Part shown: in pieces, positions 1-3,921 of the stretch
How the letters are laid out: the number at the start of each line of letters is the position of its first letter
Numbering within the stretch: position 1 is the stretch's first letter
Assembly: GCA_045863235.1 (NCBI GenBank)
Contig: BTUM01000111.1
Span: 1 to 22,388 of the forward strand
Reading direction: 5' to 3'
Source of the DNA: Candidatus Xenobia bacterium
GTDB taxonomy: Bacteria > Vulcanimicrobiota > Xenobia > Xenobiales > QWHO01
DNA: 22,388 nucleotides
Made by a program: the position numbers and the translations under genes
Notes under the pieces: model-generated
What the model saw: the letters and a program-made list of their open reading frames with translations, nothing else
Databases searched by the model: none
Told to the model about the DNA's origin: nothing

Positions 1-222
1 CTCGCGGCGTTTAGCTCCGCGGCATCGCTCAGGTTGGGATGCTACCCCTGTCCGTTTCGGCTCGGACAGACCGTCTCCAGCACTTTCCCGGAGATTGCTT
101 CCTTCGGGCTCTCGCGGCGTTTAGCTCCGCGGCATCGCTCAGGTTGGGATGCTACCCCTGTCCATATCGGCTCGGACAGCCCGTCCCCGGTTAGTTTCCC
201 GGAGATTTGCTTCCATTTGTCT
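1..222. repeat. Two ~110-bp tandem units, first 53 bp identical (1-53 = 111-163)
   Basis: Direct comparison: ctcgcggcgtttagctccgcggcatcgctcaggttgggatgctacccctgtcc occurs at 1 and 111; the remainder of the units is similar but diverged. Confidence 0.95.
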
Positions 223-614
223 TCGCGGCGTGAGCTCCGCGGCGTGACTCAGGTTTGCACGCCACCCGGCCGGTCTTTCGATCCTGGCCGTGCCCTTTGC
301 TTACGCGGCCTGGGCCCCGCGGCATCACTCGGTCTGGATGCGACCCCTGTCCGTATCGGTATCCGACAGTCCGCCGGTTCTTTCGCTTCCCGGTGCGCTG
401 ACTTCTTTCGTTTGGTCAGAACGCTGGTCTCTTCGCCGACCAGGGGCAAGCCCGCATGGGCTTGTTCGGTTCCCACCTCTCCGAACGCTCCGAGCTCTTC
501 TGGATTCGCTTCAACGGTGGCTAGCTCACCTCCGCGAGTCGCTGTCGGCTCGGCCCCTCTGAACTTATCGCAGTCAGAGCTTCTGCGGCGTGACTCAGGT
601 CTGCACGCAACCCC
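3..614 (-). repeat. Dispersed ~45-bp two-hairpin module, 5 copies (3-48, 113-158, 224-267, 304-347, 569-614)
   Basis: Minus-strand pattern GGGT-N-[GCATC|GCGTG]-CMRACC(T)GAGY-[GATGC|CACGC]-[CGCGG|CGCAG]-loop-[CCGCG|CTGCG]. Confidence 0.9.
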
Positions 615-752
615 TTCGGAATTCCTCCGAAGCCTCGGTCTTCGCTCTCCGAGTGCGTCCCGAAAAATCCTTTCGGGATTTCGGCTCTCCGCTTGCCGAG
701 TGCGGCGTCTCCGGTTTCCCGGTTCCGCGCCGGCATCGCTGCCGACCGGCGG

Positions 753-781
753 ACTATGCCACCTTTCCGACCGCCTGTCAA
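753..781 (-). promoter_or_regulatory. Sigma70-type promoter with extended -10 and GC-rich discriminator
   Basis: Minus strand: TTGACA (781-776), 17-bp spacer ending in TGG, CATAGT (758-753), then CCGCCG; A/T tracts upstream (786-818). Predicted TSS ~746. Confidence 0.8.
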
Positions 782-873
782 CTCCGAAAATTTGTTCGGT
801 CCTGGAATTTCAAAAAAACAGCCCGCCAAGAGGGTGCAAAGGCGAGCCGACGAGGGATTCCGTATGGGTTCGG

Positions 874-1224
874 TTAGAATCGAGCTTGCTGAAAGAACTT
901 GGCGTAGGGGTTGCCGCTGGGTGCGGCCAGATGGCTCAGGGGAGCCATCACCCTCTGCTTGAGGTTGGCCACCGCGCCCATGACCTGGAGATCGGCCGGA
1001 GCCACATCGGAGCTGAAGTTGCGCAGCCCGGCCGGCAGTCCCCCGATCGCTACCGCGCCCACCGGCAGATTGGCCAGCACCGGACGGGTCAGGGGGCGCG
1101 ACTCGGAGGCGACCCGCACTTCGAATTCTGGAGCCGGAGCCAGTTGCGGCTTGCTCTCGCGGGCGGGCGGGAGATCGAGGCCACTGGCCGCGGGCAGCAT
1201 GAAGGGGATGCTCATTCCGACCAT
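874..1224 (-). CDS. Hypothetical protein, 116 aa, Pro/Ala-rich
   Basis: ATG preceded by a strong SD (AAAGGAG, 1240-1234) and a TATCCT -10-like hexamer (1261-1256); no recognisable domain. Confidence 0.7.
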   Translation of the reverse strand: MVGMSIPFMLPAASGLDLPPARESKPQLAPAPEFEVRVASESRPLTRPVLANLPVGAVAIGGLPAGLRNFSSDVAPADLQVMGAVANLKQRVMAPLSHLAAPSGNPYAKFFQQARF

Positions 1225-1293
1225 TGCGTGGCGCTCCTTTCTCCGGGTTGACTACAGGATATCCCACCGAGTGCTCCGGAGTTCACCGAAAAC

Positions 1294-1320
1294 GTGTTAA
1301 GGGAGTGTAATCAGTGTTAA
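1294..1320. promoter_or_regulatory. Three direct repeats GTGT(T)AA with 10-bp period; probable transcription-factor binding site
   Basis: GTGTTAA 1294-1300, GTGTAA 1305-1310, GTGTTAA 1314-1320 in an AT-rich divergent intergenic region. Confidence 0.6.
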
Positions 1321-1438
1321 CAGATTATGAACTTTCGCGCACGCCAGATGAACCGGCTTTCTGGTAACAAGCGGGCAACCAGCGCCGGCCTCGGTCCGGC
1401 TAGGATCGGGGCAATCCAGCAGACAAGGGGTAGTTTAG

Positions 1439-2266
1439 ATGCAGATCGAGTCCCCCACCCGAGAGCAGGCCGTCACCGCTCTGCGAGCGCGCAGCGCCGA
1501 GCTGATTCGCGAGGGAGACATGCGCGGGGCCGAGCAAGTGCAACGCGACCAGGTGCTGCTCTCCGGAGCCAGAGGAGAGACGCTCTATGACATGCATCGC
1601 CACGCCAGCCAGAAGGCGAGCATCCGGTTCCCCGAGGATGACACTCTGGGTGACGCGCTGACCTGGAATCCGGGTCTCATGCTCGGGACCATCGCCGGTA
1701 CGATCGGTGGGGTCGTCGCCGTCGGCGCGGGGCTGTCCACCGGTAGCCCGGTGGCACTCGGAGTAGGGGTGGCCCTGTTGGCTACCACCGGGGGAGGCAT
1801 TCTCTGGCTCAAAAATCGGATCGACCAGCGCAATCACGGCGAAGACGTGCTGCGAGCCATCGAGAGCAATCAAGAGTATATCCGCGGCTACACACCATCG
1901 GCTGCTCCCCCGGAGGTGCAGATCGACCGCAGGGTCTTTCTGGCCGCTCTCCAGGGCCAGGAGGCAAAGCTGGCTTCGGCTGGCAACTACACCCGCGCTG
2001 GCGAGATGCGCAAAGTGCACGAGTCGCTCTCCAGGCTCGAGGGCAAGACAGTGGAAGAGCTCTTCCAGAGCCTCATCGCCAGCAACAATCGGGAGGTGCT
2101 CGACCTGGTGCAGGGCCGGCTGAGCGGCGACATCGCTCAGAGCATCGAGACCCTGGCCGAGGTCAGCAAGCTGGTGGGACCTCAGGGCCAGGCCCTGGTG
2201 CGCGAAGACAGCGATTCCCTGGTCATCGGCGGTGTGGTCCTGAAGAAACGAGCCGAGGCCGCCTGA
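1439..2266 (+). CDS. Hypothetical protein with central Gly-rich hydrophobic hairpin and C-terminal IGGVV-KR motif
   Basis: 275-aa ORF with GC3-biased codons; SD-like AAGGGG 8 nt upstream; two TM-like segments at 1673-1810; no signal peptide. Confidence 0.85.
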   Translation: MQIESPTREQAVTALRARSAELIREGDMRGAEQVQRDQVLLSGARGETLYDMHRHASQKASIRFPEDDTLGDALTWNPGLMLGTIAGTIGGVVAVGAGLSTGSPVALGVGVALLATTGGGILWLKNRIDQRNHGEDVLRAIESNQEYIRGYTPSAAPPEVQIDRRVFLAALQGQEAKLASAGNYTRAGEMRKVHESLSRLEGKTVEELFQSLIASNNREVLDLVQGRLSGDIAQSIETLAEVSKLVGPQGQALVREDSDSLVIGGVVLKKRAEAA

Positions 2267-3921
2267 GCCGGGTCTTCCTGGTCCTGTTGCTGTTGGCCCG
2301 GGTGGCCCTGGCCCAGCCGGCCGACCTGGTCTTGCGCGACGCGCGCGTTTACCCGCTGGACGGAGCTCCTACCGAGGCCGTGGCCGTGCGTGCAGGGCGC
2401 ATCGTGTATGTGGGCCCCAACTCGGGGGTGGAGGCCCTCACCGGACCCGGGACCCGGGTGCTCAGCCTGCCCGGCCGCATGGTGCTGCCCGCCTTCCACG
2501 ACTGCCATGTCCACCCGCTCGAGGGCGGCGTGGAGTTGGGGCGGCTGTTGTTGGACAGCTCGGCCACCTCCCCCCAGGTCTGGCTCGACCGCCTGGCCGC
2601 CTACGCCCGCGAGCATCCCGAGAAGAGCTGGATCGTGGGCGGGGGCTGGGCCAACCCGCTTTTCCCCGAAGGCAATCCCAGTCGCAAGCTGCTCGACGCC
2701 GTGGTCAGCGACCGTCCGGTCTACCTGGTCACCGCCGATGGCCATTCGGCCTGGCTCAACAGCGCCGCCCTGGCTGCGGCCGGCATTACCCGCGAGACAC
2801 CCGACCCGCCCGGAGGGCGCATCGAGCGCGAGAAGGACGGGGCACCAGCAGGTACACTGCGCGAGAATGCCCTGGCGCTGGTAGCGCCGTTTCTGCCGCC
2901 CACCACCCTCGAAGAGCGCCAGGAGGGGCTGAGGAAGGCGCTGGCCATGGCCCACAGCTTCGGAATCACAACCCTGCACGAGGCCCACGCACGTGACGAG
3001 GCCGACCTGAGTGCCTATGCCGCCCTGGAGGCAGGCGGAGAGCTGAAGGCCCGCATCATCGCCAGCTTGCACACCGAGCCCGGTCAGGGAGCCGGCCAGG
3101 TGGGCCAGCTGATCGCCCTGCGCAAGCGCTATCTGAGCCGCCTCCTGCGCCCCACGGCGGCCAAGATCTTTGCCGATGGTGTCATCGAGTCGCGCACCGC
3201 GGCTCTGCTCCAACCTTACAGCGACAAGACCAGCGGCATGCTCAACTTCCCCCCCGACGAGCTGACCGCGCTGGTGGTGGCCCTGGACCGGGCCGGCTTT
3301 CAGGTCCACGTGCACGCCATCGGCGACCGGGCTGTCAGGCTGACCCTGGATGCCCTGGAACAGGCCCGTCGGGCCAACGGACGACGGGACGCGCGCCACC
3401 ACCTGGCCCACCTCGAGCTGGTCCATCCCGACGACCTGCCGCGCTTTGCCAGCCTGGAGGTGGGAGCCACCGTCCAGCCGCTGTGGGCCCAGCGCGACAG
3501 CTACATCCGCGAGCTGAGCGAGCCCTTTCTGGACGCCGAGCGCAACGCTCGTCTCTATCCCCTGGCCGCCCTTGCGCGCCACGCTCGGCTGGCGGGCGGC
3601 AGCGACTGGTCGGTGAGCAGCATGAATCCCCTTCAGGCCATCGAGGTGGCGGTCACCCGGCGCGGTCCCGACGAGCCCGCCGGACCGCCCTGGCTTCCCG
3701 AGCAGCGGCTCGATCTGGACACGGCCTTGCGCGCTTACACGGTGGGTGGGGCCTATGCCAGCTTCCAGGAGAACGAGACCGGGACGCTCACGGTGGGCAA
3801 GGCCGGCGATTTGATCGTGCTCGAGCGGGACCTGTACCAGATCGAGCCCGGGGAGATCGGCTCGGTCAAAGTGCTGCGCACCTTCTTCGAGGGAGAAGAG
3901 GTCTACACGGCCTCGCCCTGA
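2263..3921 (+). CDS. Amidohydrolase-3 family (YtcJ-like) metal-dependent hydrolase, probably exported
   Basis: Motifs PAFHDCHVH, DGHSAWLNS, KIFADG, VHAIGDRA, HHLAHLEL, GGSDW, YTVGGAYA, GKAGDLIVL. An in-frame CTG at 2263 completes a signal peptide (SRVFLVLLLLARVALA-QP); the ORF track starts at TTG 2287. Confidence 0.92.
   Translation: MSRVFLVLLLLARVALAQPADLVLRDARVYPLDGAPTEAVAVRAGRIVYVGPNSGVEALTGPGTRVLSLPGRMVLPAFHDCHVHPLEGGVELGRLLLDSSATSPQVWLDRLAAYAREHPEKSWIVGGGWANPLFPEGNPSRKLLDAVVSDRPVYLVTADGHSAWLNSAALAAAGITRETPDPPGGRIEREKDGAPAGTLRENALALVAPFLPPTTLEERQEGLRKALAMAHSFGITTLHEAHARDEADLSAYAALEAGGELKARIIASLHTEPGQGAGQVGQLIALRKRYLSRLLRPTAAKIFADGVIESRTAALLQPYSDKTSGMLNFPPDELTALVVALDRAGFQVHVHAIGDRAVRLTLDALEQARRANGRRDARHHLAHLELVHPDDLPRFASLEVGATVQPLWAQRDSYIRELSEPFLDAERNARLYPLAALARHARLAGGSDWSVSSMNPLQAIEVAVTRRGPDEPAGPPWLPEQRLDLDTALRAYTVGGAYASFQENETGTLTVGKAGDLIVLERDLYQIEPGEIGSVKVLRTFFEGEEVYTASP

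Follow-up and report, generated by a model that had tools for sequence, protein, structure and literature searches.

Comparative genomic analysis of a probable new family of large, module-built noncoding RNAs in Candidatus Xenobia and related bacteria

Several types of bacterial RNAs are the closest described counterparts of the locus analyzed here. CsrB, CsrC and RsmX, RsmY and RsmZ are stand-alone, strongly transcribed and terminator-ended decoys of the CsrA/RsmA proteins, which contain many small hairpin repeats in numbers that vary between relatives. The OLE, GOLLD, ROOL and raiA RNAs are long, lineage-restricted and highly expressed, possess covarying helices and pseudoknots, and have no adjacent regulated gene. 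ToxI RNAs are built from units of ~36 nt located directly upstream of a toxin gene on the same strand. To our knowledge, large, abundant and structured RNAs are a rarity in bacteria, and new biology has followed from every one discovered to date.

In this work, we studied the 781 nt at the beginning of a window of 22,388 nt, which is contig BTUM01000111.1 of Candidatus Xenobia bacterium assembly GCA_045863235.1 (source genome G000). The lineage is barely studied and known mainly from metagenome-assembled genomes. The evidence supports the assignment of the minus strand of positions 1-781 to a promoter and the 5'-terminal ~746 nt of a stand-alone noncoding RNA; that this is a real, abundant and structured RNA of a new family appears very probable to us.

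Promoter, transcript and modular layout

The predicted features of the locus, in the order of transcription, are as follows.

784..818, minus strand: upstream promoter region, with a T-rich tract at ~806-818 and a palindrome CCGAA-N6-TTCGG at ~784-799 abutting the -35 box
753..781, minus strand: sigma70-type promoter, with -35 TTGACA at 781-776, a 17-nt spacer and TG-extended -10 CATAGT at 758-753
729..747, minus strand: predicted RNA start at ~746 and 5' hairpin with a GCGA loop, as read from the sequence
722-711, minus strand: hairpin CCGG-GAAA-CCGG, part of the 5' hairpin region 634..722
700-681 and 653-634, minus strand: two hairpins with purine-rich AGCGNAGA-type loops
678-658, minus strand: hairpin with a GGAUU loop
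464..632, minus strand: complete family module, beginning with an H2-like hairpin (632-614), GGGGU and P2 (614-588)
587-569, minus strand: P1 of the complete module, the loop of which pairs with 562-557 as a pseudoknot
555-548 with 495-488, minus strand: long-range helix of the complete module
486-464, minus strand: closing hairpin of the complete module
463-448, 443-424 and 419-398, minus strand: three spacer hairpins
395-304, minus strand: first diverged truncated unit, with H1 (395-372), H2 (369-347) and core (347-304)
289-224, minus strand: hairpin (289-268) followed by the second diverged core (267-224)
1..220, minus strand: tandem 110-nt units, each with an H1-like hairpin, H2, GGGGUA, P2 and P1

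The near-consensus leftward sigma70 promoter proposed in an earlier note on this DNA was recovered by a consensus scan as the only sigma70-like site in positions 1-1400, against 0.1 expected in shuffled sequences; it matches the consensus at 10 of 12 positions and has TG ahead of the -10 box. Across five genomes of the genus the -35 box is invariant and the spacing is kept, with a variable spacer sequence and a -10 box that reads CATAGT or CATTAT. The arms of the palindrome are present in all five orthologues, and the word CGAACA occupies its place in five of the eight paralogue promoters of the source genome; judging from these sequences, the palindrome or the T-rich region may be an UP element or a regulator site. 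The discriminator between the -10 box and the start reads as G+C-rich. The earlier placement of the start at ~746, on a GCGA hairpin followed by a GAAA hairpin, agrees with the presence of both hairpins (747-729 and 722-711), and the former is homologous to the 5' hairpin of the paralogues (GUCGACG-GCGA-CGUCGAC). The exact start is nevertheless a predicted one: RNA contigs from runs X2 and X4, which belong to two studies, break off at 737 and 738 with no loose end, and these ends are a weak hint at the start site rather than a mapped start.

The stretch or a part of it is contained in 20 of the 24 listed sequencing runs. Half or more of its sampled words were present in 16 runs recorded as RNA; the holders come from 13 studies and cover wastewater, sludge, bioreactor, wetland, sediment and aquatic samples. 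This presence and the contig ends at 737 and 738 fit the suggestion of an abundant RNA. In run X3, the RNA contig has a mean depth of 685 versus 3.9 for a 215-nt contig on the neighbouring gene; the runs are stored as contigs, from which strand, ends and level are not readable, and contig depth reflects expression poorly. One contig of run X1 crosses the promoter to position 1002 at a depth of 5, similar to the flanks; runs X2, X3 and X4 have no contig over 790-1279, which is not evidence of silence there. In all four runs (X1-X4), RNA contigs of 508-773 nt cover several units and modules.

The RNA is longer than 1.1 kb and extends beyond the window. It comprises one complete pseudoknotted module of ~170 nt followed by truncated units of 106-110 nt, each with GGGU, a hairpin with an ACC loop and then a CGCGG/CCGCG hairpin. 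The pseudoknot of the complete module pairs CUCUGA with UCAGAG. Model R1 matched both diverged units (301-347, 57.6 bits; 221-268, 61.6 bits) and both tandem units (110-158, 73.2 bits; 1-48, 62.3 bits). Tandem Repeats Finder reports a repeat at 1-255 with a period of 110, 2.3 copies and 87% matches. The loop of the repeated core is CnnACCUGAGn and lacks GGA; GGA loops are confined to two 5' hairpins (678-658 and 632-614). In genome G004, stem 678-658 has two double compensatory changes (pairs 133-149 and 137-145), and pair 422-433 of the middle spacer hairpin is altered on both sides.

The transcript strand is most readily taken to be the minus strand. As the earlier note had said of both stems, hairpin 747-729 has one U-G pair, equivalent to C-A on the plus strand, and stem 94-74 has one G-U pair valid on the minus strand only. 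Among 31 distinct units, six mismatches become G-U on the minus strand and three on the plus strand, the latter all in one orthologous unit; the helices of the full-module alignment contain 53 G-U cells versus 3 A-C cells, a count that leans to the minus strand because the structure was predicted on that strand. The sense strand has 55.5-60.9% purine in nine of nine stretches, and its A/U ratio in the window is 2.26. Minimum-free-energy z-scores (-2.09 for minus, -3.24 for plus) were dropped as a strand discriminator, the minus strand being not better than the plus strand.

There is no credible ORF in the region. One example (1..1251, plus strand, 416 aa) has an open 5' end, and a Pfam search with five ORF translations of the region gave no match. 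Orthologues of the locus differ by indels of 7 and 49 nt; together with repeat periods of 110 and 106 nt, which are not multiples of three, and of 59-71 nt, these keep no reading frame. The absence of a credible ORF claimed in the earlier note holds, although open frames do exist.

The window begins at a contig end that lies inside the tandem repeat. The array resumes on the end of contig C13 with 3.3 identical 106-nt copies; the assembly breaks inside the array, and counts of its units refer to the assembled copies. To the left, an intrinsic terminator on the same strand (L001, 9499-9480) is followed by a convergent gene. The complete locus is found on a single contig in genomes G001 and G004 with the same flanking genes, and it is syntenic in five genomes with identity down to 71%. 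Inspection of the sequence left of the window, proposed earlier as a check, thus revealed further units, the terminator and a gene pointing the other way. Since the array ends at a terminator, beyond which lies a convergent gene, the RNA is not a leader, and the long regulatory leader of a leftward gene that had been offered as an alternative is not upheld. Neither rRNA, including the 16S rRNA considered earlier as a downstream gene, nor tRNA nor any Rfam element was found in the 10 kb left of the window, which also speaks against the leader of a stable-RNA operon. The tandem repeat at 1-255, the contig end within it and the paralogous genomic loci are absent from the earlier note.

Conservation, novelty and distribution of the family

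Compensatory changes within the modules bear out the idea of a structured RNA composed of repeated modules. In an alignment of 25 units, 99.2% of cells are paired versus 92.4% in shuffles, double changes occur in 5 of 10 pairs, and none of 500 shuffles matched the observed covariation score. The five orthologues have double changes in 14 of 145 predicted pairs, and 17 full modules (that of the window and 16 from other loci) in 18 of 36. Pairing of the P1 loop with the downstream strand, which makes the pseudoknot, reaches at least 6 bp in 34 of 53 modules, versus about 7 of 53 with shuffled loops, and is achieved by more than 10 different sequence pairs. The complete module has five covarying helices, the pseudoknot and the long-range helix among them, and invariant unpaired parts such as GACCGCGAGG and the loop UGAGGNUGGAG.

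A search with the 4227 models of Rfam 15, as the earlier note had advised, returned no match at the gathering score on the whole window and L001, at E<=5 on window positions 1-1300, or at E<=1 on L009, L011 and five paralogue loci. On seven loci of family f2, three sub-threshold matches were obtained, none on a module; the two with an alignment shown lie on or beside the terminator hairpin. The RNA therefore matches no Rfam family, even at permissive thresholds, in line with its earlier description as novel, and no account of such an RNA was found among the titles and abstract openings returned by literature searches.

Model R1 has 24 matches in the source genome, where at least eight loci run from promoter to terminator. 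The -35 box TTGACA is present at seven of these eight, and a hairpin with a U-tract closes the 3' end of each locus sequence read. Each family locus has a strong promoter of its own and a 5' hairpin, followed by one to five or more modules and by a terminator; at the other loci the units are ~250 nt long and mutually different. Matches were found in 17 of 40 genomes of the order (f1 4/4, f2 12/16, f3 0/19) and in 15 of 151 genomes of a phylum sample; among the genomes sampled, the RNA is confined to two families within the order plus one other in the class (Vulcanimicrobiota/Eremiobacterota). An 18-nt pattern scan of genome contigs gave 43 stretches, of which 40 were scored with the model, L039, L046 and L052 being left out for overlap with others; four of the 40 (L044, L061, L065 and L071) were not confirmed. 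Plasmids gave no match to the pattern; viral sequences gave seven, none of which scored with the model.

The flanking genes differ at every locus and include those for a C11 peptidase, a DinB-type polymerase, a GNAT protein, a 2-phosphosulpholactate phosphatase-family protein (PF04029), an AIR-synthase-like protein and proteins without a Pfam match. Paralogues of flanking proteins were not found at other RNA loci. With different neighbours at each locus, these genes provide no functional clue.

The paralogue in the window has amplified only the most conserved sub-module, consisting of GGGU, the ACC-loop hairpin and the adjacent hairpin. This sub-module is 45-50 nt long; the 3' half of the module and the strand that pairs with the loop in the pseudoknot are not part of it. 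Units are 106-110 nt long and include H2 in genomes G000-G003, and are 59-71 nt long without H2 in G004. The 106-110-nt amplification in four genomes and that of ~60-70 nt in the fifth probably arose independently.

Proposed function and alternative explanations

In the proposed mechanism, transcription would start ~7 nt past the -10 box at a protective 5' hairpin, pass one complete pseudoknotted module and then the array of truncated units, and end beyond the window, at an intrinsic terminator that also serves the convergent gene. The amplified sub-module would be a putative binding site; the RNA may thereby bind one partner, most likely a protein that binds RNA, in many copies and serve as its multivalent decoy or scaffold. 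As a whole explanation, we lean somewhat toward a stand-alone paralogue RNA of an undescribed family with a sub-module array acting as a decoy or scaffold. The multivalent decoy or scaffold role as such is plausible at a little short of even chances, and its mechanism is conjectural throughout. A broader proposal is tentative: a new class of bacterial long noncoding RNAs of 0.25 to more than 1.6 kb, encoded by multiple genes and running from promoter to terminator, in which a pseudoknotted module with a core amplifiable like a cassette would allow a global RNA-binding factor to be trapped or scaffolded in a multivalent and tunable manner, the phylum being one without CsrA. Points against a decoy include the elaborate fold of the complete modules, which would also suit an RNA with an activity of its own, and the lack of genes for two partner candidates, CsrA in the source genome and Ro60 in the five genomes of the genus. 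Base-pairing of the P2 loop with the 16S rRNA 5' end was dropped as a clue, the loop word being variable across the family.

An RNA with its own activity, in which each complete module is an aptamer, a ribozyme or a self-assembling block and tandem copies increase the local dose or assemble into a larger body of RNA instead of trapping a protein, is unlikely in our estimate. The five covarying helices and invariant unpaired stretches of the complete module speak for it, such complexity being typical of RNAs with tertiary folds; some large ornate RNAs form RNA-only assemblies, and no protein gene accompanies the loci. However, only the 45-50-nt sub-module is amplified here, without the pseudoknot partner and the 3' half, which fits poorly with a requirement for the complete fold, and no known ribozyme or riboswitch model matches. 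Processing of a precursor into unit-length small RNAs, with the 60-110-nt units as the active molecules, would explain the head-to-tail arrays under a single promoter and a single terminator, as well as unit boundaries at comparable places with purine-rich linkers between them. It is improbable given RNA contigs of 508-773 nt that span several units (these may be joined from fragments), units of ~250 nt unlike one another at the other loci, and the lack of a same-strand nuclease or toxin gene downstream, the next gene being convergent.

A DNA-level element (REP- or MITE-like, a satellite or an array of DNA-binding-protein sites) with incidental transcription is suggested by the palindrome CCGCGG in the stems and by partial copies at several genomic places. 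The 'copies', however, are whole genes, each running from promoter to terminator and all in one sense; the locus is syntenic in five genomes at identities down to 71%; the compensatory changes preserve pairing and not sequence, with G-U pairs on one strand; the pseudoknot pairing covaries; the purine skew is strong; and neither plasmids nor the seven viral pattern matches yielded a scored member. We hold this explanation to be highly improbable. For a coding gene with repeats, or for a long 5' leader, one could cite the open frame of 416 codons through the region on the plus strand and the extension of the transcript past the window end, but the terminator and the convergent gene close the transcript, 10 kb to the left are free of rRNA, tRNA and Rfam elements, the repeat periods (110, 106 and 59-71 nt) and indels (7 and 49 nt) keep no frame, and the ORF translations lack a Pfam match; the probability of this explanation is close to nil.

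The build of this RNA is unusual: a complex module occurs 1 to 5 or more times per gene in at least eight genes per genome, and its core is amplified differently in relatives. This offers experimental handles, with the minimal unit as a bait for partners, the single module for structure work and the variation in unit copy number as a natural dose series. RNA databases would gain a family, and abundant metatranscriptome reads that are now unassigned would be explained.

Comparison with known RNA systems

A CRISPR array, with identical short repeats between unique spacers, differs from this RNA, in which the whole 106-110-nt unit repeats, at 100% identity on C13, and the variable part of the unit is only the short self-complementary P1 loop. 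A bacterial Y RNA was rejected because the genus lacks a TROVE protein: Ro60/TROVE (PF05731) gave no match in five genomes of the genus; two of the 40 genomes sampled from the order had one. CrcZ-type decoys, in which Hfq binds repeated A-R-N tracts, resemble the RNA studied here in purine- or A-rich linkers and loops, such as AGAAAGCAAAG between the units of G004 and the GAAGCGAAAGAA loops, but the conserved core here is a folded unit and not an A-rich single strand. Hfq is encoded in the source genome, in three of four other f1 genomes and in all 16 f2 genomes; it is also encoded in 5 of the 19 genomes of f3, a family in which no match to the RNA was obtained. With 25 of 40 genomes across the order positive, including f3 genera without the RNA, co-occurrence with Hfq was dropped as a partner clue for lack of specificity.

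ToxI shares the tandem array of a short pseudoknot-forming unit under one promoter with a terminator after it. Here, in contrast, the units measure 59-110 nt and the downstream gene is convergent; no same-strand toxin gene follows the array at the window's locus or at paralogues L002-L006. The OLE, GOLLD, ROOL and raiA RNAs, whose Rfam models do not match, are likewise long, lineage-restricted, ornate and not tied to an adjacent regulated gene, but the RNA described here strings together one to five or more copies of a single module and comes from at least eight paralogous genes per genome.

With the CsrB and Rsm RNAs this RNA shares the stand-alone, repeat-built design ending at a terminator and the idea of multivalent sequestration. 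The absence of an encoded CsrA led us to reject a CsrA sponge: PF02599 had no match in the source genome (97.6% complete), and the control genomes did give a score. The Rfam CsrB and Rsm models do not match the RNA, and its unit is a 45-50-nt GGGU/ACC pseudoknot candidate with a second hairpin, not a GGA loop. If the broader proposal is true, the family would be a functional counterpart of CsrB or of the decoy RNAs with repeats in eukaryotes, though unrelated in fold and partner.

Promoter, terminator and limits of the RNA gene

A consensus scan of window positions 1-1400 returned a single sigma70-like site, on the minus strand, against 0.1 expected by chance. This is the promoter proposed in the earlier note, and its elements are conserved in the five genomes of the genus: in their alignment the -35 box is invariant, the -10 box is CATAGT (CATTAT in the most distant genome), and the 17-nt spacing is constant while the spacer sequence diverges. 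Such conservation of the elements over a variable spacer is what a working promoter would be expected to show. The gene read from this site has the following parts.

Features of the RNA gene in the window (all on the minus strand)
784-799: palindrome or CGAACA word before the -35 box, also found at the paralogue promoters on contigs C59, C6, C43 and C23
781-753: promoter, -35 TTGACA (781-776), 17-nt spacer, TG before the -10 box, -10 CATAGT (758-753)
747-729: 5' hairpin
722-634: four small hairpins
632-464: one complete module
463-398: three spacer hairpins
395-304: truncated unit
289-224: hairpin and truncated core
204-1: 110-nt tandem units keeping only an H1-like hairpin, hairpin H2, GGGGUA, P2 and P1; the array continues in contig C13

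Of the hairpins named in the earlier note, the one with the GCGA loop lies at 747-729 and the one with the GAAA loop at 722-711; the G.U pairs that the note gave for 747-729 and 94-74 were also seen. Five of the eight family promoters in this genome have, directly before the -35 box, either CGAACA or the palindrome CCGAA-N6-TTCGG, which may represent a shared regulator site. The C23 promoter carries a full palindrome, CGAACA-GTT-TGTTCG, which we take to resemble LexA-type boxes.

The window comprises all of contig C111 in a draft assembly (8.36 Mb, 166 contigs), so that a contig end falls at position 1. Tandem Repeats Finder identified a 110-nt repeat at 1-255 (2.3 copies, 87% matches); partial copies of the unit that have diverged were seen at 301-347 and 566-614. 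Searched with blastn, the same genome showed the array again, in matching orientation, in the last 370 nt of C13, where it has a 106-nt period and 3.3 identical copies; therefore, the assembly was broken within the array, and C13 supplies what lies to the left of the window. The join was confirmed in two other genomes of the genus, G001 and G004, where the left-hand genes, the array and the right-hand gene all lie on a single contig. About 120 nt separate the end of the array on C13 from a minus-strand hairpin with a U-tract (9499-9480 of L001, the end stretch of C13), which doubles as the terminator of a convergent plus-strand gene of 102 codons. The 10 kb left of the window contain no tRNA and no Rfam element. 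Because of this terminator, the convergent gene and the lack of tRNA or Rfam elements in these 10 kb, both the interpretation as a long regulatory leader and that as an rRNA or tRNA leader were rejected.

Several neighboring genes were recorded. A gene for a tyrosine recombinase of the phage integrase family (L001 6512-7750) lies 1.7 kb left of the array, with no tRNA within 10 kb. Just upstream of the promoter, on the same strand, is a 116-codon gene (874-1224) that is conserved in G004 and has neither a Pfam match nor a paralogue in the genome; in one RNA run, X1, a single contig links it with the RNA. The 275-residue protein encoded at 1439-2266 on the plus strand has no Pfam match, and its paralogues on C2, C31, C32 and C71 share 31-70% identity over parts.

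Repeated unit, complete module and strand

The array is built from a unit that reads as follows.

Repeated unit (minus strand, 5' to 3')
GGGU(A)
P2: 5-bp hairpin, 11-nt loop with ACC...AG
P1: 5-bp hairpin CGCGG/CCGCG immediately after P2, loop variable or with an extra stem inserted
Purine-rich linker

Among 25 distinct units from the five genomes, 99.2% of cells are paired, compared with 92.4% in shuffles, and five of the ten unit pairs show double-sided changes (for example, A-U to G-C or C-G to U-A). The observed covariation score was reached by none of 500 shuffles, and sliding the partners by 1-3 columns lowered the pairing to 18-48%. The invariant bases of GGGU and of ACC(U) in the loop can pair with each other, which would give an H-type pseudoknot. 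The complete module was studied in an alignment of 17 copies, including window 422-652, for which RNAalifold predicted 36 pairs, 18 of them with double compensatory changes.

Helices of the full module predicted by RNAalifold
Hairpin H2
P2
P1 loop with the strand just downstream
Long-range helix, GGCCUGG with CCAGG
Closing hairpin, loop UGAGGNUGGAG

The helix between the P1 loop and the downstream strand forms a pseudoknot with P1. In a set of 53 modules deduplicated by shared words, 34 have a complementary run of at least 6 bp at this position, compared with about 7 when the loops were shuffled; many different sequence pairs make the pseudoknot, that of the window being CUCUGA/UCAGAG. The orthologous locus in G004, of about 1.6 kb, carries roughly twelve short units (59-71 nt each), which retain GGGUA, P2, P1 and the purine-rich linker and lack H2. 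Thus, amplification of one core seems to have taken two different routes, and from the unit boundaries the two events were probably independent; on our reading, more copies of the core were favored by selection.

Folding energy does not tell the strands apart (z = -2.09 for minus versus -3.24 for plus). In a wobble test on the two hairpins of the unit, P2 and P1, across 31 distinct units, six mismatches became G.U on the minus strand and three on the plus strand, both kinds of wobble being counted and the three plus-strand cases coming from one orthologous unit with a doubtful P1. These counts alone give modest support to the minus strand, and they agree with the orientation of promoter and terminator, the purine content and the G.U excess of the full module. 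The predicted sense strand in the window is 60.9% purine (A/U 2.26), with 55.5-60.9% across all nine family stretches in the genome, and the covarying helices of the full-module alignment contain 53 G.U and 3 A.C cells, a count biased towards the minus strand, because the structure was predicted on it.

Distribution of the family and presence in RNA runs

The locus was found by DNA similarity in all four other genomes of the genus (92-93% identity in three, 71% in G004). A covariance model of the unit, R1, has 24 matches in the genome under study, covering the C111/C13 array and loci on C59, C6, C43, C23, C79, C35 and C12. Family promoters here have TTGACA at seven of eight loci and a TAnAnT-like -10 box at 17-18 nt; the loci begin about 7 nt past the -10 box with a 5' hairpin with a GCGA loop, carry 1-5 modules of about 230-250 nt, and close with a terminator of the form AAAGCCACC-loop-GGUGGCUUUUGUGUUU. 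At all five paralogue loci for which ORFs were listed, the gene downstream is convergent, and adjoining genes are unrelated between loci. On C59, the paralogue with five modules faces a gene for a DinB/IMS-type translesion polymerase (L002 2864-3922) in convergent orientation, which may be chance. The observation in the earlier note is confirmed; its main reading, an RNA of repeated modules at one locus, is supported and widened to a lineage-specific family.

Across the order, R1 matched 17 of 40 genomes (4/4 in family f1, 12/16 in f2 and 0/19 in f3, whose genomes are small, 1.9-4.7 Mb). In a phylum sample, 15 of 151 genomes matched at E<=1e-4: 4/4 in f1, 9/16 in f2 and one genome of f5, a further family of the class; the remaining families gave 0/111. 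In the species-representative genome collection, an 18-nt core pattern was present in 43 stretches, mostly from records titled Vulcanimicrobiota, Candidatus Xenobia or Candidatus Eremiobacteraeota, and R1 confirmed 36 of the 40 loci scored. The other four (Rhodoferax MAG, Xanthomonas, Desulfogranum and Lewinella MAG) are probably chance matches. Confirmed members in MAGs titled 'uncultured Burkholderiales' or 'Selenomonadaceae' (loci L030, L040, L049, L056, L057, L060, L063 and L067-L070) suggest mislabelled or mixed bins. Plasmids gave no match to the family, and R1 confirmed none of seven viral pattern matches.

Rfam 15 gave no match on the window and L001 at the gathering score, on window 1-1300 even at E<=5, or on the G001 and G004 loci and five paralogue loci at E<=1, in agreement with the novelty proposed earlier. 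Seven f2 loci gave three sub-threshold matches, none on the module, and the two with alignments shown lie on or beside the terminator hairpin. Full-text searches of part of the literature brought up no paper describing such an RNA. These results support the view that the family matches no described RNA family testable here. The f2 RNAs contain the word GAGGAAAGUC (L024 at about 1100-1170, L023 at about 1300-1340), which we take to recall the conserved P4 strand of RNase P RNA; it is probably a chance resemblance, with no Rfam RNase P match on the f2 loci.

When window 250-760 was used as the query of a word search, 24 runs were listed, and 20 of these contain all or part of the stretch; at least half of its words occur in 17 runs, 16 of them recorded as RNA. 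The runs with the stretch derive from 13 studies, whose samples were from wastewater, sludge, bioreactor, wetland, sediment, aquatic and electrolysis-cell sources. Contigs of four RNA runs (X1-X4) were compared with window 230-2300; they show presence, and strand, ends and level are not readable from them. Contigs of X2 (230-737) and X4 (230-738) have no loose end and stop 8-9 nt short of the predicted start, a weak hint of the start site. The X3 contig (230-708) has a mean depth of 685 and then passes into a G001-like variant, and the neighboring genes are represented in X3 by one contig (1321-1535, depth 3.9); paralogous RNAs have contigs at depth 2988 and 2575 in X3 and at depth 125 in X4. 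The X1 contig extends to 1002 at depth 5, like its flanks, and may reflect DNA or read-through. Taken as evidence of presence, the contigs make a good case that the RNA is real and plentiful, as had been supposed.

Possible function of the RNA

It is established that the promoter is strong and conserved, that the RNA has a protective hairpin at its 5' end and a terminator, that its module has a covarying, pseudoknotted fold, and that there are many genes per genome, with one sub-module amplified. A protein-coding gene or a leader is a negligible prospect, given the terminator and convergent gene. Open frames exist, one of them with 416 codons on the plus strand, but Pfam matched none of five ORF translations, the repeat periods (110, 106 and 59-71 nt) do not correspond to multiples of three, and indels of 7 and 49 nt separate the orthologues, which bears out the earlier claim of no credible ORF. 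A repeat acting at the DNA level is very improbable. Cleavage of a precursor into unit RNAs is rather unlikely, and an RNA with an activity of its own, or one that self-assembles, is a minor possibility of slightly greater weight.

As the most likely mechanism, we tentatively propose that the RNA would engage an RNA-binding factor at many sites, as a multivalent decoy or scaffold. This putative role is preferred because a small sub-module of conserved sequence was amplified and the rest of the fold dropped, as a need for additional binding sites would yield. Purine-rich loops and linkers are present in the RNA, and its conserved core is folded. As for known RNA-binding proteins, CsrA was not found in this genome (97.6% complete) and Ro60 was not found in the five genomes of the genus. 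Hfq genes accompany the RNA in this genome, in three of the four other f1 genomes and in 16/16 of f2, and are also present in genera without it.
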